From a virus (taxonomy: Duplodnaviria; Caudoviricetes), in IMG/VR virus record IMGVR_UViG_3300001525_000313, positions 38,923 to 102,922 of that record: a stretch of DNA of 64,000 nucleotides. One strand, written 5' to 3'. Shown piece after piece: positions 1,835-49,953 of this stretch (its first letter is position 1; every line of letters begins with the position of its first letter). The notes beneath the pieces were generated by a model. It worked only from the letters and a program-made list of their open reading frames with translations, searched no databases and had not been told where the DNA came from. A program made the position numbers and the translations under genes.

Positions 1835-1904
1835 AATTAATCTCACTATAATTTATAGATGCTATATAGAATAAATTGGCTCATTACAATTTGATATATA
1901 AAAC

Positions 1905-1941
1905 AATATCCCGATAATCATATAAATGATGTCGGGATATT
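1905..1941 (-). terminator. Inverted repeat / intrinsic terminator after the gp6-like gene
   Basis: AATATCCCGA (1905-1914) ... TCGGGATATT (1932-1941), followed by a T-rich tract on the minus strand. Confidence 0.6.
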
Positions 1942-1948
1942 ATTTATG

Positions 1949-4618
1949 CTATTTTGATATTGCCTTGACTAGTACAACAACATTGTTTAAAACTGGAATC
2001 ATAAAATGATGCTTAATGTAATATGGCTTTATATAACATCTTGGTGTCATAATCGTATCTGTTACATTTGAAAGTGTTATTACTATACGTTTAGTGTCTG
2101 TAGGTGCTTCATATTCATATAAAATATCATTAGCAGTATCATCGTTATTATATAAAAATTTATATTTATATAAATTTTTATCTAGTGCATCATCTTTAAA
2201 TTGACCGGTTAACTCATCATATGAATCTGGATTTATATAACCGGTTAATGTACCATAGTTTTCATTCTTACTATAATCAGTTTTAAATTCATCAGATTCA
2301 TCTTCTCTTGTCTGTACTTCATAAGAATATGTACAGCATAATCTATATCCACGTTTTAATTTAATTCGTGTATCTTCAGTGGTCTCTAGCTTTATTGTAA
2401 TTAAATCATTTTCATAAATTTTACTACCTGCTACTATTACAGGTATTTGTTCTATATCTGTTGATGTTATATGTACTGTTCTCCATGCAATAGAACTTTT
2501 TGCAACAAAACCTGACTCAATTTGTCCATTATATACATAATAGCAATAATGATAATTATATTTATTAGCTGGATCAAGTTCAGAATTATTTTCATCTTCT
2601 GAATTATTTTCATCTTCAGAAGAGTCTTCATTGATATAGTTGAAGCTAATTTTAAATAAGTTTTCATCTTTTAAATCGAATTCTTTTCTATCTAGTTCGC
2701 CATAATTATCCTGATATTTAACTAATATATCATAATCAAGAATCTCTTGCTCAATTGATGAATCAGGATTATCATTATTATAGCTTATTAAATGATATAT
2801 TTTTGGATAGTTGTAATTTTCTGATTTTGATTCATTCTTATATTTTTCATCATAGTCATATCTTGGATATTTATTGTAATAATAAACTGTCCCATCAGTA
2901 TCAGTAAATTCACCACGCAATGGATATACCGTATCAGTATATTTATTTCCATCACTGTCAACATGATCAACCATATATGAATAGTTTAAACTATTGTCAC
3001 CGTCCTCTAATGCAGCATATAGGTGATCAATCTCATCATTTGTAAGCGTTGCAGTATTAGCGAGTGTTGTATCAATTGTGCCAAAGGTTGTATCACGTAC
3101 TAAACAGCTTTCCATGCGAATTACATGATCTGAAGCTTTATGTACTAAATAATTTATTACAGAAATTTCAGGTTTTCGTTCACCAATTGTTGAACCGTAA
3201 TAATTAATTAATTCTGATTGTATTTTTGTTGCAACCTCAGATGCTGAAACACCAAGTAAATAGCAATCAGCTTTAACAACAATTGTATATGGATCTTTTC
3301 CATAAGGAACCATTACAATACAATCTGATCTTGATGAACGTTCTTTTAAATCTTCCCACATCTGTTTTCTTGCTGAGAAATTATCATCTGTAGAAATGTA
3401 AATTACTCTTGGCAATAGCTGTGTGCCATAAGGCAATATATCTTTATAGTTATCACCATGATCAAATACAGTACAATAAGATGAATAAGCTGATTTAATA
3501 TATGTTGAATAATTATCCTTTGTTAACAAAGCTGAATAATCATGCAAATACTTTTTGTATTGCTCACGAGTTACAACTGGATCTTCATAATCTCTGTAAC
3601 CCTTAATACCATTTCCTAAATCAACTTTATATGAAGTTTTAATATCGAGATCATCTGCTGCAACAGCTTTTGTAATATAATTTGACAAATCAACAGCTTC
3701 AGTATTTTCATCAGTCGGTTCTATAACATTATTCATAACCTGAATATATTCAAATGTAAATGTATCTGCTTGGTTAAATAAAATGCTATAGTCTGTTGTG
3801 AATTCAATATTTAATACAAGTGAATTACCAATAAATTTTGGTGTTAATGAATATGAGTGTTCGCTATAACCAGTACTAATTACATCTACAACATATTGTA
3901 ATTCTTCATCAGTATATTCATTTGCTCTATGACATATAAGTCTAAATAGTCTGCGATCAATCATTGCATCAGGTAATGTTACTGTTGAATCCTGATTAAT
4001 GTCTTTATATGAAAATTGAAAATCAGCTTTTTTACCTAATACTACTGGTAAATGTACTGATCTATTATAAATAGTACTAGCATACCTAGAATAGATGTCT
4101 CTATTATTTTTTAAATCATGATCATAAGGTTCTTGATCATTAAAATTTGACTCATTTACATAATTACGAATAGTTTCAATATATTCATTATCTAGTGGTT
4201 CTTGTAATATTGAATTAATGCTTTTTGTAGCATATAAAACATCACCAGTAGATTTTACTTTAATTTCATCAAATTTATTTATCTGTAATTGTACTTTTCC
4301 ACCAGTTTCAAAGTCTTCATTTGCTGTAATAGTTAAAGTGCCAAATGATGAATTTGGTAACATAAGGTTGTAACCTTCACGTAGAGCATAAGAATATATT
4401 GATGATGCTCGCTGTGCAGTTGAAATGTCACATTCACGTCTTATTTCATCAATTGTATAATGAAGCTGATCACCAATTCGTGCTAATGTTTCAGCATATA
4501 TAACAACCGGGTCTGCTAAATTTGTATAATCCCAATCTTGTGGCAATCGTGTTCTTAAAAATTGTATAATTTCTTCACGTAAAGTTGAATAGTCTCTACC
4601 TAAAAATCTAGAAGCCAT
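1949..4618 (-). CDS. Baseplate wedge protein (T4 gp6 / baseplate J-like) with a long C-terminal insertion
   Basis: N-terminus RDYSTLREEIIQFLRTRLPQDWDYTNLADPVVIYAE...DQLHYTID...STAQRASSIYSYALREGY is typical of gp6/gpJ; follows gp25. Confidence 0.85.
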   Translation of the reverse strand: MASRFLGRDYSTLREEIIQFLRTRLPQDWDYTNLADPVVIYAETLARIGDQLHYTIDEIRRECDISTAQRASSIYSYALREGYNLMLPNSSFGTLTITANEDFETGGKVQLQINKFDEIKVKSTGDVLYATKSINSILQEPLDNEYIETIRNYVNESNFNDQEPYDHDLKNNRDIYSRYASTIYNRSVHLPVVLGKKADFQFSYKDINQDSTVTLPDAMIDRRLFRLICHRANEYTDEELQYVVDVISTGYSEHSYSLTPKFIGNSLVLNIEFTTDYSILFNQADTFTFEYIQVMNNVIEPTDENTEAVDLSNYITKAVAADDLDIKTSYKVDLGNGIKGYRDYEDPVVTREQYKKYLHDYSALLTKDNYSTYIKSAYSSYCTVFDHGDNYKDILPYGTQLLPRVIYISTDDNFSARKQMWEDLKERSSRSDCIVMVPYGKDPYTIVVKADCYLLGVSASEVATKIQSELINYYGSTIGERKPEISVINYLVHKASDHVIRMESCLVRDTTFGTIDTTLANTATLTNDEIDHLYAALEDGDNSLNYSYMVDHVDSDGNKYTDTVYPLRGEFTDTDGTVYYYNKYPRYDYDEKYKNESKSENYNYPKIYHLISYNNDNPDSSIEQEILDYDILVKYQDNYGELDRKEFDLKDENLFKISFNYINEDSSEDENNSEDENNSELDPANKYNYHYCYYVYNGQIESGFVAKSSIAWRTVHITSTDIEQIPVIVAGSKIYENDLITIKLETTEDTRIKLKRGYRLCCTYSYEVQTREDESDEFKTDYSKNENYGTLTGYINPDSYDELTGQFKDDALDKNLYKYKFLYNNDDTANDILYEYEAPTDTKRIVITLSNVTDTIMTPRCYIKPYYIKHHFMIPVLNNVVVLVKAISK

Positions 4619-4726
4619 TTAATAACCTCACTATTTATTTATATACTTAATAGGCCTACACTGTATAGCTATATAATGAATGGATAGTTAACGAACATAT
4701 TTCTCATTTATATAAGAATAAAAAAT

Positions 4727-4763
4727 AAACCCAATACAATAATATACATTACGTATTGGGTTT
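4727..4763 (-). terminator. Inverted repeat / terminator after the gp25-like gene
   Basis: AAACCCAATAC ... GTATTGGGTTT, followed by ATTTTTTATT on the minus strand. Confidence 0.6.
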
Positions 4764-4783
4764 TATAAATTTTAATAGCTAAA

Positions 4784-5134
4784 TTAAGATGCAATACCAT
4801 CTGAAATTTTTAAATTCAATGAAACTTTTTCAGATTGTCTATTAAGTACTATATTAAAATATAATTGATTATTTGTTACATAATATGAAATATTCGACAA
4901 TGTAACACCGCCAAGTAATGCTATAGCATTCTTAATTTCCTGACCAATCATATTTATTGTAAAATAATTTAATATGCTAAATCGGAACTTGTTTAAGTTA
5001 CTTCCATATGTCGGATAATAAAATCTAGATCCAAATGGCGTATTTAATATTGAAATCAATTGTGCACGAATTGATTCTATATCATTTGCATAAACAAAAT
5101 TTTTATCATTATAATTTCCGATAAAAGTTTTCAT
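4784..5134 (-). CDS. Baseplate protein, gp25/GPW family
   Basis: ESIRAQLISILNTPFGSRFYYPTYGSNL matches the gp25 I..IL.T..GER...P.FG motif. Confidence 0.9.
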   Translation of the reverse strand: MKTFIGNYNDKNFVYANDIESIRAQLISILNTPFGSRFYYPTYGSNLNKFRFSILNYFTINMIGQEIKNAIALLGGVTLSNISYYVTNNQLYFNIVLNRQSEKVSLNLKISDGIAS

Positions 5135-5781
5135 CTTAAAATATCCACTACATATAAATTTTGTACATCATTACCAGTTGCTATACAAAGTGCCAAATCA
5201 CCTGCTTTTATAAATAATTCCTCTTCATCAACTTCATCACCTTCAGAAGCGCCTTCTGACTTTACACACCAAGGAAGTTGTGCAGCTTTTTGTGATGTTA
5301 ACTCAATATCGAGATTCTCACCTTCGGTAGCCATATCAATTTCAGCACCCATAGCTTGTTCTATTTTTGCCATTCCTGATGCAGCTGATATTGTAAATGG
5401 CGTTGTTGAAGTTCCTGGTAGTGCTGGTATTGTTACAGTTGTTCCCATTAAAGGTGGGCCGCCTGCCAATGTTACATTACTAAGCTGTGCATTTGGCATT
5501 GAAATTTTACCTTTTAATTTAGCACTACCTTTAAATGTAATTTTTGGTGGATTTTTCCATGCTATATAAGCAGCTCTAAGTGTCCATGATGCTTTTGCTT
5601 TAAGTTGAGTTGAGCCTTCTTTACCATGCTCTGGTCCATCTTCGGTACCTGCAACATCGTAAACATCAACCCATAAATTGCCATCTTCAGCAAAGCTACT
5701 ACCAACGTCTTCACATATACGTCCAATATATACTGATAATGAATTGCGTGGTATTGTAAATTTATCTGATAAATTAGCCAT
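5131..5781 (-). CDS. Putative baseplate central spike / gpV-like protein
   Basis: Lies between the hub and gp25 genes; OB-fold-like N-terminus (VYIGRICED...NLWVDVYD) and C-terminus (KAGDLALCIATGND). The ATG at 5781 follows GGAG and is preferred over the track start at 5796. Confidence 0.45.
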   Translation of the reverse strand: MANLSDKFTIPRNSLSVYIGRICEDVGSSFAEDGNLWVDVYDVAGTEDGPEHGKEGSTQLKAKASWTLRAAYIAWKNPPKITFKGSAKLKGKISMPNAQLSNVTLAGGPPLMGTTVTIPALPGTSTTPFTISAASGMAKIEQAMGAEIDMATEGENLDIELTSQKAAQLPWCVKSEGASEGDEVDEEELFIKAGDLALCIATGNDVQNLYVVDILR

Positions 5782-5813
5782 TAATACAAGCTCCAAATAT
5801 TAAATATTATTTA

Positions 5814-8246: not shown

Positions 8247-8257
8247 ATAGATACCAT

Positions 8258-12931: not shown

Positions 12932-14332
12932 CTACCACCAATACTTTTTGTGACCTAATTTATCAAATAATTTTCCTGGTAAATTAGGAAGATCAAAATT
13001 CTTAGATACAAGTGATCCTAATAAACCAATAACAATCTTAAATCCGGTGCCAACTATTTTTGTAATATCTACACCTTCACCAAACCATTCATCAAGTGTA
13101 TTAGCTAGAGGGCCTGTAACTTTACCAAGTGTATTATTAAATACATCCTCAAATAAACTAGGAAGTTTACCTTCAGCAGTGTTAGTCTGATTAGCTTCTC
13201 TAATCTGATCATCTGTGTATAATTCTTTTCTAATATTATGTCCATTTTCCTCAGCTTCTTTTGCACGAGCTGCAAAATTAGGTAAAACATCTCCAGCTGC
13301 TGTTGCTAAGTTTGACTTAGCAACAATATTATCAAAAAATTTATCTATACTGTCGGCTTTCCCACCTGCGGCCCATAGGGCTTCAATTTCTTTTGGAAGC
13401 TTACCACTAGCAATTAATGCGGGGTTTTGCTGCGCAGTATATGCCATAACGATTTGTGATATTTCATCTGAATCTAATACACCGCCGGCTCGTTCTTCAA
13501 GTTGTTTAACCATTGGTATAAGTGTTGCGATTGCCTTATCAGTACCACCAAGTGTACGGCGCTGATTTGCATCTAATGAAGCTATAACATTACCTAATGA
13601 TTTTGTAACTTGATTATCACCAAGTGAATTAGCTAGATTCTTCATTGAATCATAAGAAGCTGTCTTAGATAGTTCATATGCTTTATCTGCATCCATATTT
13701 CTACGACGCATTGCCATATAACCAGCTAGTTCTTCTTTAGACATTCTAGTGACATCTTTACCAGCTGAGATTAAATCTGCTATATACTCTTTAGCTTGTG
13801 CATTGCTTATATTAAGATCGGCAAAATCTTTTGCTAAAATGCCTTTCATAGAAATTGCAAGATCTTGAATCTGATTCTTCTGATCATGCGACAAGTTTGC
13901 TTTACGCATAATAGTAGCTAAATCAGACTGTGTTTTAAGGGCTTTATTTAAATTTTCTTTTAAGAAGCCAGTTAATCCATCTAATGCTGTCATGAGACCT
14001 TCACGCAACATTTTATTAAACATGTTGCCATTCTTAATCTCGCCATACATGGCTGCTTCAGTAGCACGAGATTTACGATTTGCTGCATCAGATGCTAAAT
14101 TATTTTTACGATCTTCTTTGCGATTATCAGTATTTTGTTTACTTTGTGTAGTTCTTAAAATTTCAACTTCATTTTCTAATGATGATATAACAGAGCTTTG
14201 ACGTGATATGGCTTCTAAAATATCTTTAAGTGCATTATTACCAAATGCAGATACAGTTACATCAGTACTACCTTTTGTAGCTGCTGTATCAAATTGTTTC
14301 ACAACATCATTATAATTAACTGCACTAGCCAT
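12932..14332 (-). CDS. Tape measure protein, N-terminal part (joined to the downstream ORF by a +1 frameshift)
   Basis: Helical Ala/Lys-rich protein with a GAGGTG RBS; the Gly-Lys-rich tape-measure-like sequence continues in the +1 frame at 12932-12954. Confidence 0.7.
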   Translation of the reverse strand: MASAVNYNDVVKQFDTAATKGSTDVTVSAFGNNALKDILEAISRQSSVISSLENEVEILRTTQSKQNTDNRKEDRKNNLASDAANRKSRATEAAMYGEIKNGNMFNKMLREGLMTALDGLTGFLKENLNKALKTQSDLATIMRKANLSHDQKNQIQDLAISMKGILAKDFADLNISNAQAKEYIADLISAGKDVTRMSKEELAGYMAMRRRNMDADKAYELSKTASYDSMKNLANSLGDNQVTKSLGNVIASLDANQRRTLGGTDKAIATLIPMVKQLEERAGGVLDSDEISQIVMAYTAQQNPALIASGKLPKEIEALWAAGGKADSIDKFFDNIVAKSNLATAAGDVLPNFAARAKEAEENGHNIRKELYTDDQIREANQTNTAEGKLPSLFEDVFNNTLGKVTGPLANTLDEWFGEGVDITKIVGTGFKIVIGLLGSLVSKNFDLPNLPGKLFDKLGHKKYWW

Positions 14333-14358: not shown

Positions 14359-14388
14359 AAGTCCATACATCAATTGATATATGGACTT
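14359..14388 (-). terminator. Inverted repeat / terminator overlapping an ATATCAA motif
   Basis: AAGTCCATA ... TATGGACTT; TTGATAT at 14374-14380. Confidence 0.55.
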
Positions 14389-15800: not shown

Positions 15801-15890
15801 AATAACACCTACAATTAATAAATATAATTAAATATGTTATTTTGATATTCTGCAATAACTACACATAAAGACTCGAATAATACAATAAAA

Positions 15891-15915
15891 CCCCATGCAT
15901 AATATACACATGGGG
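15891..15915 (-). terminator. Terminator after the tail sheath gene
   Basis: CCCCATG ... CATGGGG, then TTTTATT on the minus strand. Confidence 0.65.
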
Positions 15916-19068: not shown

Positions 19069-19156
19069 AAATTAACACTTAATTATATAGATATAGTTTA
19101 AATATAAATTGAATAAAATAAAATGCTATAACTATTATAGTTATTTTATATATACA

Positions 19157-20365: not shown

Positions 20366-20424
20366 TATATTACCTCGTATGTTTATGTAACATTGAACTA
20401 ATATAATATTGATATATAAATTTA

Positions 20425-20444
20425 CCCTAGTAATACTACTAGGG
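20425..20444 (-). terminator. Inverted repeat after the SNF2 helicase gene
   Basis: CCCTAGTA-ATAC-TACTAGGG. Confidence 0.55.
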
Positions 20445-20464
20445 CATTATATTGATAAATATAT

Positions 20465-21982
20465 TTACTTTTTCCAAAGAAAATTCTTCTTTAATTGTTT
20501 AGTATCTGAATAGTCAATGTCAAGATAATTACACTCACAATTATCAAGAGCACCAGTTGATTCTTCACCAAGTAATAGCTTAATTAAACCAATACGTTTT
20601 TTAAGCAGTGAAGTTCTATATGTATCAATTGTATCTTTTGCAGATATAAAATAAATGTTTTGTGCACTATAAGTTGAATCCATTCTACAAACACGACCTG
20701 CTAACTGAATTACACGACCAATTGAAAATGGTGCATTTATAACTACAATATTATTTGCTCGTTGAAGATTGCGTGACTGTGATGCAGCTTGTGAGCATAA
20801 AACAATTTCTTTAAGACCAAGATTAGCCTCAATCTTAGCACGTTGATCTTCTTTTTCTGCACCAGTAAGCTTATATATTGATTTAAAACCAATTGAATCT
20901 TTATGCTGTAATAATATTTGTTCAGCTAATTCAAGTGACTCAGTATATTCAAAATATATTAAAGCTGATTCATTACGAGACATAATATCATGTATTGTCT
21001 GCATCATCAACTTCATCTTATTAGAAATAATATCTGGAGATGGTTCAGTACTACCAAAATCAACTACGCGTTGTAAATCATGTAGTCTAGCACCAAAATC
21101 TTTTGCATCTTCTGCAGGATTGTTTAAATTGTCATCTTTTTTCTTTGATTTCTTTTTTACTTTTTCTGGATGATAAAGTATATCAAAAAATCCCTTTGCT
21201 GCCATTGCATATAATTTTTCGCATTCTTTATCAAGATCACAATCAAGGAAATTAAAGTTTACATTATAATGTACACAACCCTTAATAATAAGCTTATCAA
21301 GAATGCCATTAAGCTCTTCCATATTTTGGAAACCTGTAATCTCTATAATTTTTCTTTGAATTACAGCACCAAAACGATTTTTCATTCTTATTACACGTTC
21401 CTGTGTAATACAATAATGAGCTCTGAATTTAAACCATGATTGAAATACTCTTGGATATACAAAGTGTAAAACATTAAATAAACCTTCAATGTCATTCAAT
21501 AATGGAGTTGCAGTCATTGCAATAATTTTCTTACAATAACATCTAACTTCCCATGCAGCACTAGCGAATACAGATTTTGGATTTTGTAATGAATGTGCTT
21601 CATCAATAACAAGATGGCATGTATTTGTACTAGCAAGAGCGATTAAATCTTCAATATATTTATTTACAACTGAATTCTCTACAATAATATATCGTCTACT
21701 TGACAAATCTTCATATTTAAATGTTTTTCCAGCGGTAACAAATATGTATTCACTTGCTGGAATTTCCATCTTTGTAGATAATTCTTTTTTAAATGCAGCC
21801 CTTGCCGATTTTGGAATAAATAGAATACATTTATCATTATTATCTTTTAATAGATCATATTTAACATGCCACAAACATGTTATCGTTTTCCCTGTGCCCG
21901 GAGACAAAGCAAGAATACATGCAGACATTTCCTGCATTTTCTTTATTGATTCTTTTTGTAGCTCAGATAACTCAAAATTCAT
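20465..21982 (-). CDS. SNF2-family (SF2) helicase/ATPase
   Basis: LSPGTGKT, LVIDEAH, MTATPLLN, QLAGRVCR. The ATG at 21982 (MNFELSE) is preferred because the track start lies inside an intergenic hairpin. Confidence 0.9.
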   Translation of the reverse strand: MNFELSELQKESIKKMQEMSACILALSPGTGKTITCLWHVKYDLLKDNNDKCILFIPKSARAAFKKELSTKMEIPASEYIFVTAGKTFKYEDLSSRRYIIVENSVVNKYIEDLIALASTNTCHLVIDEAHSLQNPKSVFASAAWEVRCYCKKIIAMTATPLLNDIEGLFNVLHFVYPRVFQSWFKFRAHYCITQERVIRMKNRFGAVIQRKIIEITGFQNMEELNGILDKLIIKGCVHYNVNFNFLDCDLDKECEKLYAMAAKGFFDILYHPEKVKKKSKKKDDNLNNPAEDAKDFGARLHDLQRVVDFGSTEPSPDIISNKMKLMMQTIHDIMSRNESALIYFEYTESLELAEQILLQHKDSIGFKSIYKLTGAEKEDQRAKIEANLGLKEIVLCSQAASQSRNLQRANNIVVINAPFSIGRVIQLAGRVCRMDSTYSAQNIYFISAKDTIDTYRTSLLKKRIGLIKLLLGEESTGALDNCECNYLDIDYSDTKQLKKNFLWKK

Positions 21983-21997
21983 AAGTAAACCTATATA

Positions 21998-22046
21998 AAT
22001 AAAACCAAGTAACAAATATTAGTATACATTGCAACTTGGTTTTATT
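21998..22046. promoter_or_regulatory. Long-loop inverted repeat (terminator) with an embedded sigma70-like promoter
   Basis: AATAAAACCAAGT ... ACTTGGTTTTATT; the minus strand reads TTTAAT-17 nt-TATACT across the hairpin. Confidence 0.45.
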
Positions 22047-22064
22047 AAAGCTAAAATATTCTAA

Positions 22065-22340
22065 TTAGAATGTTTTACCATTTTTCCTGTCTTCAAGAAT
22101 TGAATCTAGTCTGTCATAAGCATTTTTAGAAAATTCACTCTGACAAACAGTTAGTGCCATGTCAACAGCTCTATAATCATTAATTTCATTATAAGCTAAA
22201 GTCTTACATAAATCGTTTACAGCATCTCTTATAGTATCAACAGTTCTATAAACAGCAGATGCTACAGGATCAAGTGCTTCATTCTTGCGAGAAATTAGCT
22301 TTTCAAGTCTAGCAATTCTAGCTTCTAATTTCTTATCCAT
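22065..22340 (-). CDS. Small protein with a LEARIARLE / KNE motif (putative head-internal protein)
   Basis: MDKKLEARIARLEKLISRKNEA; the same N-terminal motif occurs in 48115..48333. Confidence 0.55.
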   Translation of the reverse strand: MDKKLEARIARLEKLISRKNEALDPVASAVYRTVDTIRDAVNDLCKTLAYNEINDYRAVDMALTVCQSEFSKNAYDRLDSILEDRKNGKTF

Positions 22341-22347
22341 AATTGCC

Positions 22348-23184
22348 TCATAATGTATTTAATCTTTCGATCTTTGATTTAAGAAAATCACTTATTGTAA
22401 CAAGCTCTCTATCATATTTGCAATTAAAGTCATCTTCGATAACATTTAATTTCATAATATTAAAGTTAGTACTAAATTTGTCATAAGCATCAATAAGTTT
22501 ATTGAGCCATTTCTTATCAGAATCTTTTAATAAAGATTCAACATTACATAATTGATATATTGATGGACATTCACCATTATAATCTAGTAATTCTACAATA
22601 TATGCAGCTAATTTCTTTGGAAATCTAGCAACTGGTGGATATAATGTATCACTTGTATCACCAGTAATTGCTCTAAAAATTGGTAATTTATTAGGCTCTA
22701 TTTCAAAAAATTTATCAGAATATTCAAACTTATATGATTCTTCTGTGATAATTAAATTTTTACCATTATCAATTACAACATCACTTGATAGTGCTTGAAA
22801 TATATCTTTATCACCTGATATAATCTTTTTCCTACCATCTAATGTCTTTGATAAAGTATAGATAATTTCATCAGACTCATAATTATTATTGTAACAAACT
22901 TTTATTTTATCATTATGAAGTAAACTTACAAATGTTGGAATAGCTTCATAAACACTACGATGCATTTCTTTATTGCGGTCTTTTTTATAGCTTTCACCTA
23001 AAATTCTACGACCTTTAGTATTAAAGCCATCAAGACATAAATATAAATCTGAATCTTTTCTAGTTAGTAAAGACTCAATTTTCTTACATAAAAAATGTAT
23101 TTCAGGATATTCTGGCCACACTTTAGAACAGCTGAAAAAGCCCCTATATAAAATCCAACTTGTATCACACAAATAATGTATCAT
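22348..23184 (-). CDS. 5'-3' exonuclease / flap endonuclease (T4 RNase H / Pol I N-terminal type)
   Basis: LCDTSWILYRGF, YKKDR, YESDEII, IISGDKDIFQ, AITGDTSD. Confidence 0.9.
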   Translation of the reverse strand: MIHYLCDTSWILYRGFFSCSKVWPEYPEIHFLCKKIESLLTRKDSDLYLCLDGFNTKGRRILGESYKKDRNKEMHRSVYEAIPTFVSLLHNDKIKVCYNNNYESDEIIYTLSKTLDGRKKIISGDKDIFQALSSDVVIDNGKNLIITEESYKFEYSDKFFEIEPNKLPIFRAITGDTSDTLYPPVARFPKKLAAYIVELLDYNGECPSIYQLCNVESLLKDSDKKWLNKLIDAYDKFSTNFNIMKLNVIEDDFNCKYDRELVTISDFLKSKIERLNTL

Positions 23185-23192
23185 ATATAATC

Positions 23193-23867
23193 CTATATTT
23201 CAATTACAGATGGTTCATATGCAACACGATAATCTTCATCTAAAATAGACACATTCTTAATATTTGCAATCTTTTTATTATTAAGAATAACTGATGTGAG
23301 ATTATGATCACCTGTATGAATGTGACCACAAATGTTTAATATTATGTTTGATCTAAGAATCTCATTACGAAGATCTACAGATCCAAGCTCTTTATTAAAC
23401 TGTTTAACAAATCCAACATTACCAAATCTTGGTGGTTGATGTGTAATTAAAATATCAGTGTCATCATCGAATTCATATATCTGATTATATTGCTTCGAAA
23501 AAGACCATCCATTTGGTGATTCACTATTTGGATTTCCATAAAACTTTAACCCATCAATAATTACTGAGTCATGACAAAGATAATGTACCTTGTCTAGCAG
23601 TTTATGACGATCAAGAATTTTATAAAGATCATCTTTAAAAAATCTATAAGTACAAGCAAAATCATGATTTCCTGGAATAACAATAATATGATTTGTCTTG
23701 AGTGTCTTCATCCATTGTGCAAATTTCTTATCCCACCAATTTAAAACTGACATACAATCTTGCTGGCAATATAAAGGTGACCAATCTCCAGCAATTACTA
23801 CTACATCGCATGACTTTTTTATAGATTCTAAATTTCCATGCTGATCTGAAAGTGCGATGATTTTCAT
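23193..23867 (-). CDS. Calcineurin-like metallophosphoesterase
   Basis: LSDQHG, IAGD, PGNHD, ITHQPP, CGHIH. Confidence 0.92.
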   Translation of the reverse strand: MKIIALSDQHGNLESIKKSCDVVVIAGDWSPLYCQQDCMSVLNWWDKKFAQWMKTLKTNHIIVIPGNHDFACTYRFFKDDLYKILDRHKLLDKVHYLCHDSVIIDGLKFYGNPNSESPNGWSFSKQYNQIYEFDDDTDILITHQPPRFGNVGFVKQFNKELGSVDLRNEILRSNIILNICGHIHTGDHNLTSVILNNKKIANIKNVSILDEDYRVAYEPSVIEI

Positions 23868-23912: not shown

Positions 23913-23940
23913 ATATACATCACATAATTTATTTTATAAA

Positions 23941-28185: not shown

Positions 28186-28225
28186 AAAGGATGCACTATA
28201 ATCATTTGATATAGAGACATCCTTT
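28186..28225 (-). terminator. Inverted repeat with an ATATCAA motif in its loop
   Basis: AAAGGATG ... CATCCTTT; TTGATAT at 28206-28212. Confidence 0.5.
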
Positions 28226-30930: not shown

Positions 30931-31039
30931 ACAAATAAATTCCTATAAAATTATATATAAATCACTAGTATACTATATGTATTAGATATTATCTGTTTAT
31001 AATTTTATACAAACATCAAAATACTAATCTTTATATACA

Positions 31040-33609: not shown

Positions 33610-33757
33610 TATACCCTCCGAAATAAGTAGTACTTATAAACGTATATTGTAAATATATTTATTAGATATAATCATATTATTTGCTGATTATAAAATTATT
33701 TAGCATATAATGTGAATATTTTTATATTGATTTATTATTATAGATATAATAAAAAAA

Positions 33758-34457: not shown

Positions 34458-34523
34458 ATTAAAATCTCCAATTTTAATTAAAGTTGGTAAATTAAAGTAA
34501 ATCAACTTAATAAATTGATATTA

Positions 34524-37697: not shown

Positions 37698-37758
37698 AAT
37701 ATAAACTCATTAAAAAGTAATTTGGTTTATTTTATAAATTTATTGATATAATATAGAT

Positions 37759-37784
37759 AAAGCTAGTACCTAGGTACTAGCTTT
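37759..37784. terminator. 26-bp perfect palindrome after fibre chaperone D2
   Basis: AAAGCTAGTACCT|AGGTACTAGCTTT. Confidence 0.7.
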
Positions 37785-38257: not shown

Positions 38258-41200
38258 TTAGGATGAAAAGACCTGTGATTGAACTTTTACTGCAAGTATT
38301 AAATAATAATATGTATCTGAATCATTATCAGGAATTGATGGTATTGGTGTTAAACATGCCCATACACCACTAAGTGGGCTATTTTGGTCAAATGTATAAT
38401 TTAAATTGTTAATTTCTACGGTATTGTTACCTACAGTACCAGATTGATTATATTGTATGTCTTTTGTAGATAAACGATATACACTATCACAATCTAAAAC
38501 AGATCCAGATGTTGTATATTTAGTAGTATCTCGATTATAACCAATAATGTTACCAAAACCATATGGCGGTCGCTGTGCATATGTGATATTTTGATCAGTA
38601 CTATTAGTGTTAGGCTCTCTTTTCAATAAAACTAAACTAACTTGTCCAACACCACTTGAACTATTAATTGTATTTGATACTTCAGTTTGTGGATCATATT
38701 TAGAATCTGTACTATTATAATCAATTTTTCTCATCCAATCAACAGATGATATACCACGTATTGCGTTTGCAATAACACCACCAAGACCACAGCCAAATAA
38801 ATAACCCTGTGTAGCGTTTGCTATAGATTGATTAGTTGGATCAGCTACTTGTGCTGGTCCTTGATCATTTGCAGAATAAAATCGTGAATAAAAACCAATA
38901 CCAACTGGTACATTGTTATTTGCAAGCAAGCTTGTATTTATAGATGAAACATTATTTAAACGTCTTGCATCAATTGGTACTAAATATGATGGGCGTGTGT
39001 TTGCAATATTAGCACCAGTTGTATCAACACCCATTGACATCGCACCGTATTGCTTACCAACAATGTAATAGCGGCCATATCGACAAAGCATTAAAACTGT
39101 TTCGCCAGCATGCCATGAATCAAATGATGATTTACCAGGCGTATTTAAATAATTTTCATAATCAGGATTATCTGGATCAAGTGATACTGTATTTTGTAAA
39201 GCTAACTCTGCATTAATAGTGTTAATATCTGCACCGAAATAAATTGGTCTGTAATATGGTTGGCCATTACTATGCAAATCTCCGTAAATGTATAGTTTTG
39301 GACTATCAGACGTATTTGTATTAGCAAAATGTACAAGAATTAGTGAATTGTCAACATATTCATAGTCTGAAGCATATATAGGATTATCTTGACTATCTTT
39401 TCCAATATATATTGTTGCATTTTTAGCATATGTACCGGCATCGGTGCTGCAATAAGCAACAGGTAATACAGTTCCAGTTGCTTTAATATTTTTTACATAT
39501 AAACTGTCAAATTTATTTGATAATGCACCTAAATCTGCGCCGGCTGGATTTGATGGTTTTACTACATATTTATTTGATGAATCACCATTAAGTGTTAATA
39601 AAGATGTTGAAAAATCTGCTGATGTTGATGAACTATTGCCAATTGAAACTACTGGCATTGGTGGTGTATTAAAGGTCCATGAAGATGGAGTTGCAGATGG
39701 TTGTATATTTAAACGCAAACCATCTTGCTGAATTGTTGATGTATAAGTATATGTAATTCCACTTGTTATATCGGTACCTGTAAAAGACATAGCACCATCA
39801 GATACTGCTATATCTGAATCAGTACCATCAAATGTAACACTATTGCTAAAAGTTTTTGCACCAGAAATTGACTGTGTTGTATCAGTTGTTACATGATTAG
39901 TTGGTATTGTTGGAATTGTAGGTTTATTTGTTAAATCATTATATGATCCACTTGTTGCAACAGTGTGTAAACCAAGATTTATTGTAACGTTTGAAGAGGC
40001 ATTTGCTGAAAATGTTGTTGAACCTGTATTATCAGTGCCGCCTTTGCTTATTGTTAAAGTAGCATTATTAACTGTTGGTATAGTTGGTTTATCAGAAAGA
40101 TCATTGTATGATCCACTAGTTGCTACAGTTGATAATCCTAAATTAATTGTTTTAGTGGTTGCATTATTTGTAGTAAATGTATCTCCAGTGTCATTAGTAT
40201 TTTTCTTAATAGTAATAGTAGAATTATTAACTGTTGGTATACTTCTATTTGTTCCATCTGCAATATCATCAAGTGTAAGTGTTACATTTGAAGATAATGC
40301 TTTGCTATTTATTGTTCTACTTGTTTGAACATAATTACTTGCATCTGTTAATTCAGCTACTGTTGTTGGAACTGTTATATTAACACTTTTATTTACAGGC
40401 GCTTGATTAATATTATTTACAGAAATGGCCTCAATAACGTTTTCTTGGCCAACATTTGAGCCTGAAGCTACTACTGAAATATTTCCGGAGCCTGTAATTT
40501 GTTCGCCATTAATTGTTTTAAATGTTGGTGCACCACTTAAATCATTGTAATCACCTGAAGTTGCAACAGTTGATAATCCTAAATTACAAACAACATCTGT
40601 TGAAGCATCTGCTGTGAATTCTGTTCCAGCATCATTTGTGTTTTTCTTAATTGTTAATTTTGCATTATTAGCTTGTGCAGGAATTGTTGTATTATCAGGA
40701 AGAGCCCCAACTTCACTTGCTGTATATGTTGGTTTAGTTGATGATTTTACCCAATTTGGTACATTTGGATCATCTGCAAATGAATAATTTGATGTACCTG
40801 GAGTTAATCCAGCAATATCATTTTGTGTAACATATTGTGCATCATTTGTAAATGCTGAAATATTAGTTGGTACTATTGGAATTTTAGGTCTATTAATTAA
40901 ATCACCATAATCACCTGTTGAAGCAACAGTTGCAAGATCTAAATCGATTGTTTTATTTTGAGAAGCATTCGCAGTAAATGTATCACCAACATCAGAAGAA
41001 TTCTTTTTAATTGTCAATGTTGCATCATTTACATTTGAAGACTGAACATTTGCAATTAAACCATCAACAGCTGATTTGTTATAATAATTAGATTCTCGAT
41101 CAGCAACATAATCTGTGATAGCACCAACAGATGGAACATCTGCATTAGGATTAGTGCTTGAACTAATAGATTGTGCTAAATTTGCAGTTTTTATAAAAGT

Positions 41201-43471: not shown

Positions 43472-43561
43472 AGTGTAACCTATAAAAATGATAATTTATT
43501 AGCATAATAGTTTGTGCACTAATTAAAAGTATTGATATGTTTATGACCTGTTATAAATAAA

Positions 43562-43593
43562 ATAAAGCTAATACCAATTGGTATTAGCTTTAT
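43562..43593. terminator. 32-bp perfect palindrome after fibre chaperone D1
   Basis: ATAAAGCTAATACCAA|TTGGTATTAGCTTTAT; homologous to 37759..37784. Confidence 0.7.
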
Positions 43594-43612
43594 ATAAACT
43601 TTAAAGTTTAGC

Positions 43613-44065
43613 CTATGAAGGTATTTCAACAATTATCTTGTCTTTTATACAATCTGGAACTATTGGCCAAACTACATTTTCCGGAAAACCAGGTTGTTGT
43701 GAAATATCACGTAATAACTGTCTAAACTTTCTTATTTCATCTTTTTGTGCTTCTGATAATGGATAATCTGGCTGAATAAGATAATCAGTAGTGCTCAAAA
43801 TAGAATCTCGTTTATAACGAACTTCAGAAGCAAATACAAAATCAGGAAGTTTATCAGGTTCTTGAATTGTAATATGACCAAGCTCAATTTCTGAAATTAG
43901 ATATTGACATAATGTTGCAGTATCTCTGTCATCTAATGAAACAAAATAAGTGAAAGGCTCTGCTCCATTAAGTTCCTCGCAAATTATATTTACAGAAATC
44001 TGATTCTTTTTATTGTTTAAATACTTAGCACTTAGTATTTTAACTTCAATAATAACCTCCAGCAA
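43613..44065 (-). CDS. Tail fibre assembly chaperone (Tfa-like) D1
   Basis: VRYKRDSILSTTDYLIQPDYP...FRQLLRDISQQPGFPENVVWP. No ATG is present; GGAGG (44056-44060) precedes an in-frame ATT at 44050. Confidence 0.8.
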   Translation of the reverse strand: MLEVIIEVKILSAKYLNNKKNQISVNIICEELNGAEPFTYFVSLDDRDTATLCQYLISEIELGHITIQEPDKLPDFVFASEVRYKRDSILSTTDYLIQPDYPLSEAQKDEIRKFRQLLRDISQQPGFPENVVWPIVPDCIKDKIIVEIPS

Positions 44066-44067
44066 AT

Positions 44068-44422
44068 CTATGCAGTTCTAATTGCAAGTAATACATACCA
44101 TTGATTTGTATCTCCATAAATAACAAGGCGTGAAAGAGTTCTAAATGTTCCTGAAACAGAGCTTCCAATCATATTTCTAAGGTTTGCTGAAGTAGATGAG
44201 GTAGGTGTTGTAATTGAAGTTATACAGTTTGGTAAAGCATAATATATAGTATTCACATTACAACCTGTTTTAGATTGTAATATATCACCACGTGCAAACG
44301 TTACTGATGAACTACCGGTGGCTGCTATTGCTGCTGCCACCTTTATATAATGCAATACTGTCTATTAAAACTGAAGATTGTTGATCAAACCAAGATGTAT
44401 CTTGTACAGTAAACTTTAACAT
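44068..44422 (-). pseudogene. Collapsed / frameshifted tail fibre gene C1 (fibre-like N-terminus joined out of frame to a fibre tip)
   Basis: GAGGTG followed by the ATG at 44422 gives MLKFTVQDTSWFDQQSSVLIDSIALYKGGSSNSSHR* (stop at 44312). The +1 frame encodes ...VSGTFRTLSRLVIYGDTNQWYVLLAIRTA, which resembles the C2 tip. It occupies the fibre slot between B1 and Tfa D1. Confidence 0.6.
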
Positions 44423-44443
44423 ATTCACACCTCTATAAATATA

Positions 44444-45238: not shown

Positions 45239-45255
45239 TAGTAATGTTCCATTAT

Positions 45256-47112
45256 TTAATCAGTTAAATCAATGTCATATACAAGATTAAGTTTATCTGT
45301 ACAAAGATATAGACTTGAAACACCATCGACAAACTGGAATCCAAGATCTGTTATCTCACTACGTGACATCCAATAATCAGTAACACCAGGAATACAATAT
45401 TCATCTGAATATGTATCAACGTAGCACTCAATTGGTGAATCACTTATTAAGTTATTAAATACTTGTGCTTGTTTGCGAATAATGCCATAGTTTGGTACAG
45501 CATAAAAATCTGTATAATACCAATAATGTTCATAGCATATTAATGATAATTGCTCTGTACATAAATATAGATGTGAAATATCACTATCATCATTATACAT
45601 TATAATTTGAAGCTCTGGATTATCATTAACGTCTATATATGTATGTTCAAGTGAATCATACATTATAGCAAAACCAGCTTCAGGCAATTTGCTTTGCCAT
45701 TTATTTATATTATTTACACCATTCCAGTATAGCTTAGTTTTTGAGTCATACCAAACAAGTGGTGTTCCATCAGTATCTAAAAGTGATCTGCCATATGGAT
45801 CAGTATATACAATTGTACATGGATAGGTAGTAATCCCACTATTATACAATTCAGATAATGGAATAAATCCACGGTTAAACTTTGTCAACTGATCTAATGT
45901 ACGATTGTTATAAATATATTTTAATGAATCATTATCTGTCTTAGTATAGTCTTGAATATCATTAGCAATGATAGACTCATTAATATATAATGAAATCAAA
46001 CTATCTTTTAAAAATAAATCACCTTCAAGACTTTGTTTCCATTGCTTTGGTAACCAATCTTCTGACCAATAACCATATTCAGATGCTTTATTATAACGTA
46101 AAGTATATGAACTTGGTTCTAATTCAAGTACATCAAAGTATATTTCACGTATTTCTGATGGTGTTTTAGTATAACCAAAATTTACAATAGGAACAGCTAC
46201 ATTACCATCCCACAATAATGATTTATCAGCATTAAACACATATATACTAATAAGACGTGATAAATCATAATATAATGTAAGTGTATAACCATCAGGTGCT
46301 ACTGTTATTGAAGATTCATCAAAGTTCCATAATTTATTTGGTTGAATGCCTTTATATTTAAAAAGTAGCTTTTTATCGTGATCTATACACTTTATAGGAT
46401 GATTGTATCTATGGTTGAATGTTAAATATGCAGTTGAAACTAAACTGATATATTGACCTGTATACCACATTGATGGATCAAGTCGCCAAATTATATCATC
46501 TGAATAGCCCAAACATTTACAGCCATATAGTACACCTAATGCATATGAATACATTGCTTTATAGTCAATGTATTTATAAGTTTGACTTTTTTGTCCAGCT
46601 GTACTAAAAATTTCAGATAGTGTTGAATAAATTTTATTAAAATCAAGTCTAGCTTCATCAGATAATGCTACATTATATTGTCTAGCATCATGAAATACAA
46701 TTGGTACAATTCTATTATCAGATTTACCGGTAATCTGATCCATAAAAATTTTCATGCCGGCACAATAAAATTCTATATAATCTTCGTGTACTAAAGTATC
46801 ACCAGTTATTTTCAAGTAATTAACAATTTTATCATAAATTTCTTGATCATTAATTCTATCTTTATATATAATTATTTCTCTTAGTTTTGTAGTATCAATA
46901 ACAGATTTAGTCACTGGATCACTAGTCTCTGGATCAATCTGTTGTTTACCAGTTTCAGGATCTATAACCGGAATATCTCTATAATAGTCTTCCTGTGGTG
47001 TTACTACAGCTTCAAGACCAAGAATGAATAACATTGTTGGATCACATAATTTTGATATACGAAGTACTTCATCATAGTACTCAATACATCCTAAAGATGA
47101 TTTATAAAACAT
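45256..47112 (-). CDS. Tail-fibre-module protein A1 (paralogue of 34524..37697)
   Basis: Shared blocks listed under A2; GGAGGG RBS. Confidence 0.6.
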   Translation of the reverse strand: MFYKSSLGCIEYYDEVLRISKLCDPTMLFILGLEAVVTPQEDYYRDIPVIDPETGKQQIDPETSDPVTKSVIDTTKLREIIIYKDRINDQEIYDKIVNYLKITGDTLVHEDYIEFYCAGMKIFMDQITGKSDNRIVPIVFHDARQYNVALSDEARLDFNKIYSTLSEIFSTAGQKSQTYKYIDYKAMYSYALGVLYGCKCLGYSDDIIWRLDPSMWYTGQYISLVSTAYLTFNHRYNHPIKCIDHDKKLLFKYKGIQPNKLWNFDESSITVAPDGYTLTLYYDLSRLISIYVFNADKSLLWDGNVAVPIVNFGYTKTPSEIREIYFDVLELEPSSYTLRYNKASEYGYWSEDWLPKQWKQSLEGDLFLKDSLISLYINESIIANDIQDYTKTDNDSLKYIYNNRTLDQLTKFNRGFIPLSELYNSGITTYPCTIVYTDPYGRSLLDTDGTPLVWYDSKTKLYWNGVNNINKWQSKLPEAGFAIMYDSLEHTYIDVNDNPELQIIMYNDDSDISHLYLCTEQLSLICYEHYWYYTDFYAVPNYGIIRKQAQVFNNLISDSPIECYVDTYSDEYCIPGVTDYWMSRSEITDLGFQFVDGVSSLYLCTDKLNLVYDIDLTD

Positions 47113-47122
47113 GATCCCTCCA

Positions 47123-47989
47123 CTATGAACACATTAAAGAGAGAATCATATTGTTAACATATGATTCAACAGTAGCATTAATAGTTGAATTTAATTTCTT
47201 TGTTAAAGCTTTTACATCAGATGATAATAATACATTAAATCCATTTTGCTTTTGATCAATAAGTTTAAGTATATCTATAAGTGATTTACATTTACCAATA
47301 AATTTGCCATTTAATGACTTTGCAACTGGTTTCGATAAATCAGCTAGGATAGCACTTGGATCAACTTTATCATAAAATTTACTATCTGTAAATGTAGCAT
47401 CACTTAAATGATCACTATTCAAAAAGTCTGTATAATCTTTATATAGTTTATCACAAGCATCTTTAAAATTAGTAATAATTTCAATATCAAGCTCAGTTGG
47501 TGTATCACTAGTTGAATTGTCTTTTAAGCTTGGCTTTTCATTCTGATTTGACCTATCATCAGCAACCTGATCTTTAAACATTTGATGAATCTTTGCATAA
47601 TCAGATTTAATCTGATTTAATACAACTAATATATGTTTACAAGCCATGCCTTCTCTATTTGGATTTCGTTTATCAGGTGCTCGTAATTCTTTATCAATAC
47701 CGACCTGACTCTTCCATGTAATATATTTATATCCCTGAAATGAAAATGCTGGACAACTACACCGAATTTTTATATCACCATTTAAAGCTGATTTAAGTGA
47801 TTTTAATTTATTGCCTGATAATCCAAGTAATTGAATTGTAACAATATATTGTTTTTTCCTTGTACTTGAAGTCACAGTATATAAAATCTTGTTATCTTCA
47901 ACTTTGTATAATTTAGCAACTAAACCTTCACGAGTTGCTTTTTCTTTTGAACGATTATCAGATTTATTTATAATATCTATAGGTCTCAT
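47123..47989 (-). CDS. SWIM zinc-finger protein
   Basis: YTVTSS...YIVTIQ...IRCSCPAF...RAPDKRNP..GMACKHIL (CxC...CxH). The ATG at 47989 is preferred because the track start lies inside the palindrome. Confidence 0.75.
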   Translation of the reverse strand: MRPIDIINKSDNRSKEKATREGLVAKLYKVEDNKILYTVTSSTRKKQYIVTIQLLGLSGNKLKSLKSALNGDIKIRCSCPAFSFQGYKYITWKSQVGIDKELRAPDKRNPNREGMACKHILVVLNQIKSDYAKIHQMFKDQVADDRSNQNEKPSLKDNSTSDTPTELDIEIITNFKDACDKLYKDYTDFLNSDHLSDATFTDSKFYDKVDPSAILADLSKPVAKSLNGKFIGKCKSLIDILKLIDQKQNGFNVLLSSDVKALTKKLNSTINATVESYVNNMILSLMCS

Positions 47990-48058
47990 AAGTAGCTCAT
48001 ATATAAAATTATGTATGTATAACTTTAATAAAATTGATATGTTATACTTGATAAAATA

Positions 48059-48086
48059 AAATCCCAATACGATCGTATTGGGATTT
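48059..48086. terminator. 28-bp perfect palindrome
   Basis: AAATCCCAATACGA|TCGTATTGGGATTT; shares the CCCAATAC/GTATTGGG arms with 4727..4763. Confidence 0.65.
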
Positions 48087-48114
48087 ACTTATATAATATG
48101 AATGTACTTATGTA

Positions 48115-48333
48115 TTAAATTTCAATGTTCATACTGTAGCATAAATCTAAAAGCTGTTCTTCATTCATGCGAGATAAGCATTCATCAATAAGCCAGCCTT
48201 CGTTAATATGCCCATCAGCTAAACTAGCATAAATAATTTCACGTAAATCATGATCAGACTGCTCATTCTCATTTTTAATATGAAATGCTCGCTCTAGTCT
48301 TGCGATACGATTTTCTAAAATATCTTTTCTCAT
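48115..48333 (-). CDS. Small protein with a LENRIARLE / KNE motif (putative head-internal protein)
   Basis: MRKDILENRIARLERAFHIKNEN; directly downstream of the portal gene. Confidence 0.55.
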   Translation of the reverse strand: MRKDILENRIARLERAFHIKNENEQSDHDLREIIYASLADGHINEGWLIDECLSRMNEEQLLDLCYSMNIEI

Positions 48334-48359
48334 ATACTTACCTACAATCCTATATTTAA

Positions 48360-49886
48360 TTACATATTAAAATCAAAATCATCTTCAGGTGTCTCAGGCT
48401 CTTCACCACCGCCAGAATTATCAGATTCAGACTCATCACTATTAGAATCGTCTTCAGGCTTTGCTAACTTATGAAGATTAAGTGAATCTATAATATCTTC
48501 ATCGTTTGATATACGATTTAATAATGCAGCAACTAATTTTGACTTATCTGAATTCTCAAATATATTTTCATCGACATTCTTAATAAGATCAAGAATTGAA
48601 GTTGTAGTTTCAATTTCAGCTTTCTGAATATCTGATAAACGTGTATCTTCGGCTGTAAGAATGCGAGGCATTTCAACAGTGAAACTTGGTGGTAGTATAT
48701 TATGAATTGAACAATACCAATATATTATGTCTCTTAAGCCAGATTTAATAATACGTTGACATCGTTTAACAGTTCTTGCATAACGAATATCCAGCTGTGT
48801 TAATGTTGTGTCACCAATTCCACCAGGTGCTTCATCAGACTGTCCTAAAAATTGTTTAGGAACTTTTAATGCACCATAATAGCGATCATCAAAATAATCA
48901 ATATCAGCAAGTGCATTTACATTGACTTCACCGCCAACTTCCTGAACTGTAACAGCACCTTGTCCATTTCGCACTGGAAAGTAAACATTGCCACCAGTTA
49001 ATATTGGTGAAGATCTTGAACTAAAAACTTCTGTACTAACATTTATTGATTGCTTTGATGAAACAGCAGTTTTTAATTCTCGAATCATTCTTGCTGTATC
49101 TTGTGAAGATGCAGAACCAACATCTACTGAGAATAATCGATAAAATGAACTACGTGTCAAACGTGCCAATATAAGCAAATCATCTAATAGCTGACGTTGT
49201 TTATAATATTGTCTTGCAGCTTCAAGGAATGACGATCCATATTGAATATAAGAATCTGAGCTTGCGTCAATATATTCTTTATTAGCACGGTCTGATATAA
49301 AGTGAATATATGATCTTTCAGGCAAAAGCTTATCTGTATTGTTAGCATCTTTATTATTGCTTACAAGATAGCCAAGTGGAACACCATATTTATAAATATG
49401 TACTACATCTTCTGGTTCAGCTATTGTAAAGTAATCACCAACTGAATATTCTTTTCTATATTCAATATTTGAATAGTTTGTATTTATATAGCATTCACCA
49501 AAAGTAACGATATTAAATGCAAGTGGATAAATAATATCGTTAATCTTAAATTTATTTTTCAAAAATGATGTCATCATTTCAGCAAAGTCTGGATTATCAG
49601 CAGACTCAACCCATGCTGATAATCCAGTATCTTGATCTATTAATGAAGCATCTTCAGATATAAGTTCAACTGCTGAAAGTGTGACACCATCTTTTAGCAT
49701 TTCACGATAGTCTTTAATCTTTGAAAGACGATCATTTGAAAGTGCTCGTAGAGAAGATATTATATTATTATCTCTATTCAAAAATATGTTTTCAAGTTTA
49801 TCATCTCTAGCATCATTAGTGTCTTTAACTACTTCTACTCGCGATGATAAACCAAACATATTTTTGAAAAATGACTTAAGACTCAT
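48360..49886 (-). CDS. Portal protein (T4 gp20-like)
   Basis: YREM..D..LSAVELISEDA, YGSSFLEAAR, LLDDLLILARLTRSSFYRLFSVDVG, YFPVRNG, DIDYFDDRYYGALKVPKQFL, DIRYARTVKR. Confidence 0.95.
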   Translation of the reverse strand: MSLKSFFKNMFGLSSRVEVVKDTNDARDDKLENIFLNRDNNIISSLRALSNDRLSKIKDYREMLKDGVTLSAVELISEDASLIDQDTGLSAWVESADNPDFAEMMTSFLKNKFKINDIIYPLAFNIVTFGECYINTNYSNIEYRKEYSVGDYFTIAEPEDVVHIYKYGVPLGYLVSNNKDANNTDKLLPERSYIHFISDRANKEYIDASSDSYIQYGSSFLEAARQYYKQRQLLDDLLILARLTRSSFYRLFSVDVGSASSQDTARMIRELKTAVSSKQSINVSTEVFSSRSSPILTGGNVYFPVRNGQGAVTVQEVGGEVNVNALADIDYFDDRYYGALKVPKQFLGQSDEAPGGIGDTTLTQLDIRYARTVKRCQRIIKSGLRDIIYWYCSIHNILPPSFTVEMPRILTAEDTRLSDIQKAEIETTTSILDLIKNVDENIFENSDKSKLVAALLNRISNDEDIIDSLNLHKLAKPEDDSNSDESESDNSGGGEEPETPEDDFDFNM

Positions 49887-49953
49887 TTATTTTACCTATA
49901 ATTTATTTAATTTAAGCATAATAAATTAATTATATATAGCATTATTGATATTA

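Follow-up and report, generated by a model that had tools for sequence, protein, structure and literature searches.

We analysed a 64,000-nucleotide (nt) stretch of viral DNA, hereafter the window, which is the final 64 kb of a 102,922-bp contig in IMG/VR (record IMGVR_UViG_3300001525_000313, positions 38,923 to 102,922; the contig is designated G000). With a probability of about 0.8, the promoters that serve the virion (late) genes of this phage clade are recognised through one element alone, the seven-base motif ATATC(A/T)A, read on the coding strand. The position of the motif upstream of genes, its strand, its conservation, its gene-class specificity and the purge of its antisense copies from coding DNA were directly observed. 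A preliminary description, made from the letters of the window, had proposed that the motif is a distinct phage-specific late-promoter consensus, and had named positional enrichment over a shuffled background and conservation in related phages as checks. Both were found, and the proposal is further supported by the strand, the gene class, the stand-alone form and the antisense purge.

G000 is linear, with an estimated completeness of about 48% and a G+C content of 30%, and its minus strand carries nearly all of the genes. It codes for a T4-type portal, a prohead protease, a gp23-type capsid protein, a DnaB-like helicase, a UvsX/RecA-like protein, a primase-like protein, two sheath-like proteins, a tape-measure protein, an SNF2-type helicase and a phosphoesterase. 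The nearest cultured phages by capsid, at about 30% identity, are Listeria LIS04, Bacillus HSE3, Streptococcus GXN1 and SP-15. About a dozen related contigs were found via the portal and capsid proteins, and the capsid-profile scans of IMG/VR and metagenomes gave close relatives only. Three relatives, G001 (204 kb, 95% complete), G002 (156 kb) and G003 (112 kb), were analysed whole.

Position, strand and conservation of the motif

In the whole window, the counts of both motif words were below expectation (35 vs 45 ± 6.6 and 19 vs 33 ± 5.4). In the intergenic DNA of G000, 17 coding-strand copies were found against an expected 5.8 ± 2.4, and none of 1000 shuffles reached 17; the reverse complement gave 3 vs 6.9 in the same count. 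A positional test was then made, in which the upstream regions having the motif 30–65 nt before the start codon were counted and compared with 500 dinucleotide shuffles. G000 had 14 such regions vs 1.3 ± 1.2 (largest shuffle, 6), and the reverse complement had one. The corresponding numbers for G003, G001 and G002 were 17, 27 and 18 regions vs 0.9, 3.2 and 2.6, with 0, 2 and 0 for the reverse complement. No shuffle attained half the observed count in any of the four genomes. These results clearly indicated that the signal of the motif resides in its position and strand, and not in its raw count.

The motif was also recovered de novo. When all 7-mers lying 30–65 nt before a start in the four pooled genomes were ranked, the list was headed by two word families, one being TGTATAT (63 vs 6.0) and the other ATATCAA (43 vs 3.7) together with ATATCTA (36 vs 5.2). 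Among the one-base variants, position 6 (A or T) alone tolerates change. The sole variant with any, slight, positional excess was TTATCAA (6 inside the 30–65 nt range and 2 outside), and changing the C to A left no positional excess.

The coding DNA of the four genomes was examined by shuffling synonymous codons within each gene. The antisense copies of both words were strongly depleted, TTGATAT occurring 33 times vs 87.7 and TAGATAT 39 times vs 125.6 (ratios of 0.31–0.38), and the sense copies were mildly reduced, to 0.71 and 0.95. As controls, one-mismatch neighbours averaged ratios of 1.05–1.12 and TAG-initial words 1.05. TAGATAT ranked 5th of 4262 words by depletion in G001 and 3rd of 2002 in G000, beside A-runs and Shine-Dalgarno-like words. 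In the minority-strand genes the purge tracked the direction of the gene and not the DNA strand (2 vs 9.0). Such a purge is expected if a lone 7-mer starts transcription and antisense starts are harmful, and an RNA signal would not cause it. The two-part TGTATAT word showed no such purge in coding DNA. TTGACAT and TAGACAT are 2.2–2.4 times over-represented in the genes of the four genomes, and the use of GAC in place of GAT to dodge the antisense promoter word would fit this excess.

The motif was shared by at least two of the four genomes in 14 orthologue groups, which include the portal, the 288-aa SWIM protein, the protease, the post-capsid gene, the genes for 124-, 149-, 98-, 466- and 116-aa products, and several large proteins. 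The 20-nt flanks on each side of orthologous sites were 33–43% identical, as compared with 32–34% for unrelated pairs. Thus, orthologous virion genes retain the 7-mer despite a near-random divergence of the flanks, and motif conservation in further partial relatives agrees with this. By gene class, the motif precedes the portal, protease with capsid, and tape-measure genes in G000, and also the large terminase and baseplate hub genes in G001.

A sequence logo of 92 sites confined the information to the 7-mer, apart from avoidance of G immediately before it and a preference for A or T in the two bases after it. No upstream −35 partner was seen in this logo, and the profile of TATAAT-like hexamers over 34 offsets after the motif was flat, with no preferred position. 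Therefore, the element stands alone. It may act as a −10 box without a −35 partner, like the T4 box TATAAATA. The start of transcription would be a few bases past the motif, with leaders of about 30–50 nt as a result. This start site is an inference, and so are the late expression and the protein assigned as reader. The genes driven in this way would be those for the portal, the protease and capsid, the neck, the tail, the tape measure and fibre-like proteins, with the terminase and baseplate hub in the relative.

Several observations weigh against this interpretation. Some virion genes (the 853-aa sheath-like gene and the 889-aa gene at 1949–4618) are without the motif, and a few non-virion genes of G001 carry it. 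In a genome-wide order-2 Markov ranking, ATATCAA was just 46th of 4730 intergenic 7-mers. In addition, G000–G003 are relatives, and counts pooled over the four genomes are not independent. The modest Markov rank, together with the window-wide count below expectation, is also what would speak for the motif being a chance product of AT-rich intergenic DNA. This explanation is refuted by the positional counts in four genomes, the conservation at orthologous genes and the orientation-specific purge, and we regard its probability as negligible.

Motif sites and terminator-like hairpins

The motif has regular surroundings with respect to terminator-like hairpins. Of the 92 sites, 36 lie 3–53 nt after such a hairpin with a T-run, 24 are inside one, 8 are just before one, and 24 have none nearby. 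In a scan of 20 kb, 14 terminator-like sites were detected vs 5.7 ± 2.4, and the motif at 14374 lies within one of these. Three hairpins in the window embed the motif, with folding energies of −15 to −21 kcal/mol and z of −4.4 to −6.0. In the orthologous hairpins of the relatives the stem sequences differ, the pairing is kept, and the motif is at the tip. Most promoters would thus directly follow the terminator of the preceding unit, and about a quarter may be part of the terminator hairpin itself. An RNA initiated inside the hairpin would have no 5′ arm, so that the hairpin could not form and the polymerase would read on, while RNA coming from upstream would terminate at the same hairpin. A promoter nested in a hairpin is a known trick, which is unusually frequent here. 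An N4-type arrangement, in which each promoter is a DNA hairpin whose stem-loop holds the conserved bases, was not found, as just 24 of the 92 sites are inside a hairpin.

These hairpins raise another explanation, namely that the motif works at the RNA level: in mRNA leaders, and often displayed in a hairpin loop, it would direct processing, stability or antitermination. The 24 copies in hairpins, some of them in the apical loop, and the variation of the stems between relatives are consistent with it. However, the other 68 copies are outside hairpins, and antisense copies, which are never in mRNA, were removed far more than sense copies, with a purge that tracks gene direction. A function in RNA is therefore very improbable.

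The preliminary description had listed ten copies of TTGATAT and two of TAGATAT on the plus strand, reading ATATCAA and ATATCTA on the coding strand, 41–60 nt before start codons. All twelve coordinates were correct, and the distances, counted between the 3′ end of the motif and the ATG, were confirmed. All sites described here are on the minus strand. The first ATATCAA (1891–1897) lies 56 nt before the 874-aa gene, which starts at 1834 and runs off the window, and it follows a terminator-like hairpin at 1906–1940; in G003 the orthologous gene has ATATCTA, at 49 nt. The next (14374–14380) is 41 nt before the 466-aa gene, the first part of the tape measure, and is inside the terminator-like hairpin 14359–14388 (−17.2 kcal/mol, z −5.9). 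G003 retains it at 39 nt and G001 at 48 nt. The 466-aa tape-measure open reading frame shares its frame with an 889-aa one, with one stop codon between them (12932–12934), and in G001 one 1400-aa protein is the orthologue; possible causes of this arrangement are read-through, a split gene or an error in sequencing.

ATATCAA at 15842–15848 is 41 nt before the 98-aa gene and is kept in G003, G001 and G002 at 37, 38 and 35 nt. At 20409–20415 it is 43 nt before the 402-aa gene and after a hairpin at 20424–20445, and the G003 orthologue has ATATCTA at 56 nt. The copy at 28206–28212, 60 nt before the 124-aa neck-cluster gene, is inside the hairpin 28186–28225 (−15.0 kcal/mol, z −4.4). The motif of this gene lies within a hairpin in all three relatives, with stems of different sequence.

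Near the capsid gene, the sites at 30983 and 33663 read ATATCTA. The copy at 30983–30989 is 52 nt before the 316-aa gene, which is next after the capsid gene, and it is kept in G003, G001 and G002 (40, 33 and 43 nt) and in the loci L038, L039, L045, L048 and L051. For the prohead protease gene, which has an overlap with the major capsid gene, the copy at 33663–33669 lies 53 nt upstream of the start and a second one is at 33741–33747; the motif was present at this gene in all relatives examined. In L048 (~1460–1530), three overlapping ATATCTA copies, 6 nt apart, precede the protease gene, and several other relatives have two.

ATATCAA at 34515–34521 is 57 nt before the 217-aa gene (ATG 34457) and is kept in L038 and L039. 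The one at 37743–37749, after the hairpin 37761–37782, is 45 nt before the 1057-aa gene, and G003 also has ATATCAA at 45 nt. The copy at 43532–43538 is 60 nt before the 283-aa gene and after the hairpin 43566–43589; in relatives this gene abuts its neighbour. At 48034–48040, after the hairpin 48060–48085, the motif is 44 nt before the 288-aa SWIM-finger gene (ATG 47989), where it was found in all relatives with different flanks. The last copy (49945–49951) is 58 nt before the T4-like portal gene, for which G003 has copies at 60 and 54 nt.

The one-mismatch copy TTGATAA at 56629, also noticed earlier, was found as described, as TTATCAA (56629–56635) 41 nt before the 1175-aa gene. It is in the loop of the hairpin 56612–56649 (−20.7 kcal/mol, z −6.0). 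In G003 the exact ATATCAA is found at an identical distance, 41 nt, and again in a hairpin loop, though the hairpin is a different one. The 1175-aa protein (53060–56587) had been called ankyrin, and this label is unverified, since it matched no Pfam family at E ≤ 0.01 and no PHROG family at the threshold applied. The sites newly found here are ATATCTA at 19088–19094, 19 nt before the 149-aa gene (kept in G001 at 21 nt and in G002 at 27 nt), the second copy at 33741 given above, a questionable copy at 43898, as well as two sites in the part of the contig that precedes the window. At the start of the contig (genome bases 1–64, ~38.9 kb before the window) a GC-rich unit is present five times in tandem, its period being 14 bp, and GTTGACGGCCTGTT is an example of the words recurring five times at 14-bp spacing in this terminal repeat.

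Other promoter classes and the candidate reader

The second promoter-like motif, carried by replication genes of which two lie within the tail module, is TTAAA-N15-TGTATA(T), with the TTAAA box 21 nt upstream of TGTATA, and this spacing is the geometry of a two-part sigma-70-type promoter. It scored 74 vs 10.9 in shuffles, is kept at orthologous genes in the relatives, and has 32 of 112 copies inside terminator-like hairpins. Earlier it had been noted that ATATC(A/T)A is absent before the SNF2 helicase, phosphoesterase, DnaB-like and regulator genes; this holds, and all of them carry TGTATA instead. The TGTATA core is at 62311–62316 on the minus strand, 59 nt before a gene for a 293-aa sigma-like protein, at 59775–59780 before the 91-aa gene, at 59417–59422 before the DnaB-like gene (in a hairpin loop), at 23914–23919 before the phosphoesterase gene and at 22023–22028 before the SNF2 helicase gene (in a hairpin loop), with further copies at 15903–15908 and 4743–4748. 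The UvsX/RecA-like gene also has TGTATA without ATATC(A/T)A. The SNF2-type helicase and metallo-phosphoesterase genes (20465–23867) lie between two sheath-like tail-module genes with their own promoter class, and this pair is a non-virion island within the late region.

A third class was found in a block of small genes on the opposite strand of G001 (L013–L015; ~20–70 kb in gene-oriented, reverse-complemented numbering, not record coordinates). It is the classical TTTACA-N17-TGnTATAAT of the Gram-positive TRTG kind, and the TRTG extension suggests a Firmicute host. These early promoters of G001 are often trailed by the conserved words CTCATAAA and GAATGGAATGG. This makes three promoter classes in all, the same number as in the cascades of T4 and SPO1.

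The candidate reader of the late motif is the 293-aa protein (61370–62251, minus strand), which is predicted to have a sigma domain-2 fold, a disordered linker and a Mor/C-like C-terminal helix-turn-helix. Its AlphaFold model (pLDDT 67.6) has a three-helix N-domain, the disordered linker and a helical C-domain. With VIA-align, the best match of the sigma domain-2-like region (residues 11–104) was T4 gp55 (chain 7d7d_F, Z 9.1, root-mean-square deviation of 2.5 over 89 residues), with a score within 1 Z of other sigma-2 domains. About 30 of the top 35 matches were sigma domain 2 (Z 6.5–9.1), and several full-length sigmas aligned over both domains (residues 10–293). Foldseek gave nothing at E ≤ 0.001, and its weak list was mostly sigma factors, with Mu Mor and C also among the matches. 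Within the family, conservation is highest in the third helix (residues 83–104), which would correspond to the region that reads the −10 box in sigma factors. Orthologues are present in G001–G003 at 58–61% identity, more distant relatives have 45–47%, and there are more than 100 relatives in metagenomes, on contigs up to ~300 kb. A tblastn search with the sigma-like protein and a 1446-aa protein against 50,697 GenBank phages gave no match.

From these data, host RNA polymerase with the 293-aa sigma-like protein is the likeliest reader, at slightly better than even odds, and the sigma assignment itself is held with moderate confidence on the basis of the predicted structure. In G000, G003 and G002, the sigma-like gene is led by a TGTATA promoter, and this fits a cascade in which the product serves the next class. 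The gene would thus be under the two-part class of promoter, as in a cascade. Profiles of a phage RNA polymerase matched nothing in G000–G003, the 95%-complete G001 included: PF00562 (Rpb2_6, a beta-subunit domain) did match its controls, and PF00940 (T7-type RNA polymerase) matched no control genome, so that its negative carries little weight. The gp45 clamp (phrog_223) was not matched in G000–G003, and this profile also matched no control, so that the negative is uninformative.

Some results speak against assigning this role to the 293-aa protein. A Z of 9.1 for a helical domain falls in the range that the tool calls common. No match to gp55 (phrog_234, phrog_12791), Sigma70_r2 or Sigma70_r4_2 profiles was found in G000–G003, and hhalign of the sigma-like family against T4 gp55 gave a probability of 0.35%. 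The family profile against PDB sequences gave E > 0.5 throughout. Furthermore, the sigma-4-like domain might suit the two-part TGTATA promoters rather than ATATC(A/T)A.

This last point is the basis of a less favoured, though serious, alternative, that the late promoter is read by another factor, either an alternative sigma of the host or a minimal gp55-like sigma that escaped detection, and that the 293-aa protein serves TTAAA-N15-TGTATAT. A protein with both sigma-2-like and helix-turn-helix domains suits a two-part promoter better than a single box, gp55 relatives are so divergent that profiles can miss them, and G000 is just 48% complete. However, the sigma-like gene is itself TGTATA-led, as expected for a factor serving the next class, the gp55 and sigma profiles had no match even in the 95%-complete G001, and gp55, which heads the structural matches of the N-domain, reads a stand-alone box.

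The C-terminal domain suggests a further alternative, in which the 7-mer is the site of a Mor/C-type activator, the 293-aa protein, that recruits the host-sigma polymerase to a downstream −10. The C-terminal 70 residues match the late-activator family phrog_836 (E 1.6e-6), the only family in the Pfam scan was Mor (0.0079, below the family cut-off), and Mu Mor and C are among the weak Foldseek matches noted above. This is unlikely, because the TATAAT-like hexamer has no preferred position after the motif, and the purge of lone antisense copies, which the TGTATAT word escapes, implies that the 7-mer suffices. Mu Mor and C bind dyad-symmetric sites, whereas the motif is asymmetric. 

Taken together, ATATC(A/T)A is a genuine, conserved feature and almost certainly a promoter that stands alone and serves the virion gene class; its consensus is new, and its factor is probably new.

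Relation to known promoter systems and significance

T4 late promoters are an 8-bp box, TATAAATA, without a −35 element; gp55 reads the box, gp33 is a sigma-4 mimic and the gp45 sliding clamp activates (PMC2988020). The system described here resembles them in that virion genes are preceded by one short AT-rich box, which lies in the −10 region and lacks a −35 partner, in the T4-type portal, capsid and protease, and in the best structural match of the predicted N-domain to gp55. It differs in the sequence, ATATC(A/T)A with an invariant C. TATAAATA was weakly enriched here (20 vs 10.2), which is largely explained by early sigma-A-type −10 boxes. It also differs in that the candidate factor is a single chain that carries a helix-turn-helix at its C terminus, as compared with the split gp55 and gp33 of T4. 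The same review asks why a fused late sigma is not found (PMC2988020). We tentatively offer the idea that this clade may have replaced the split gp55/gp33 with a single-chain sigma (gp55-like sigma-2, linker and Mor/sigma-4-like domain) on a stand-alone 7-bp promoter. It would be clamp-free, and the box might be aided by the easily melted or extruded AT-rich tip of the terminator inverted repeats.

T4 late promoters inside hairpins are known at genes e, soc, 49 and I-TevI, and the late RNA escapes the hairpin (PMC3014915). Here too, the promoter would be in the DNA for the 5′ arm or loop, and transcripts begun there would escape the effect of the hairpin. The hairpins here are terminator-shaped and do not hide a ribosome-binding site, and the layout is frequent in both the late and the second class.

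Among other phages, the SPO1 cascade of Bacillus proceeds from host sigma A to gp28 and then to gp33/gp34. The likeness lies in the three promoter classes, with early promoters that are Gram-positive-looking here (TRTGnTATAAT) and the putative late-factor gene under the middle class. SPO1 late promoters are two-part (−35 and −10), whereas the motif here stands alone. Mu Mor/C resembles the candidate factor through the weak family match of its C-terminal domain. However, Mor and C are small stand-alone dimers that use the host sigma on promoters retaining a −10, and here there is a predicted N-terminal sigma-2-like domain and no fixed downstream −10. A literature search for the 7-mer word gave coincidental matches only.

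For a widespread clade of uncultured large phages, these results outline gene control as a map that can be tested, comprising three promoter classes, a candidate sigma and a compact stop-and-restart signal. The antisense purge is a way, from sequence only, to spot self-sufficient promoter words in unculturable phages. In low-GC bacteria, a stand-alone promoter of 7 bp, paired with its own factor, could be of use as an orthogonal expression part.

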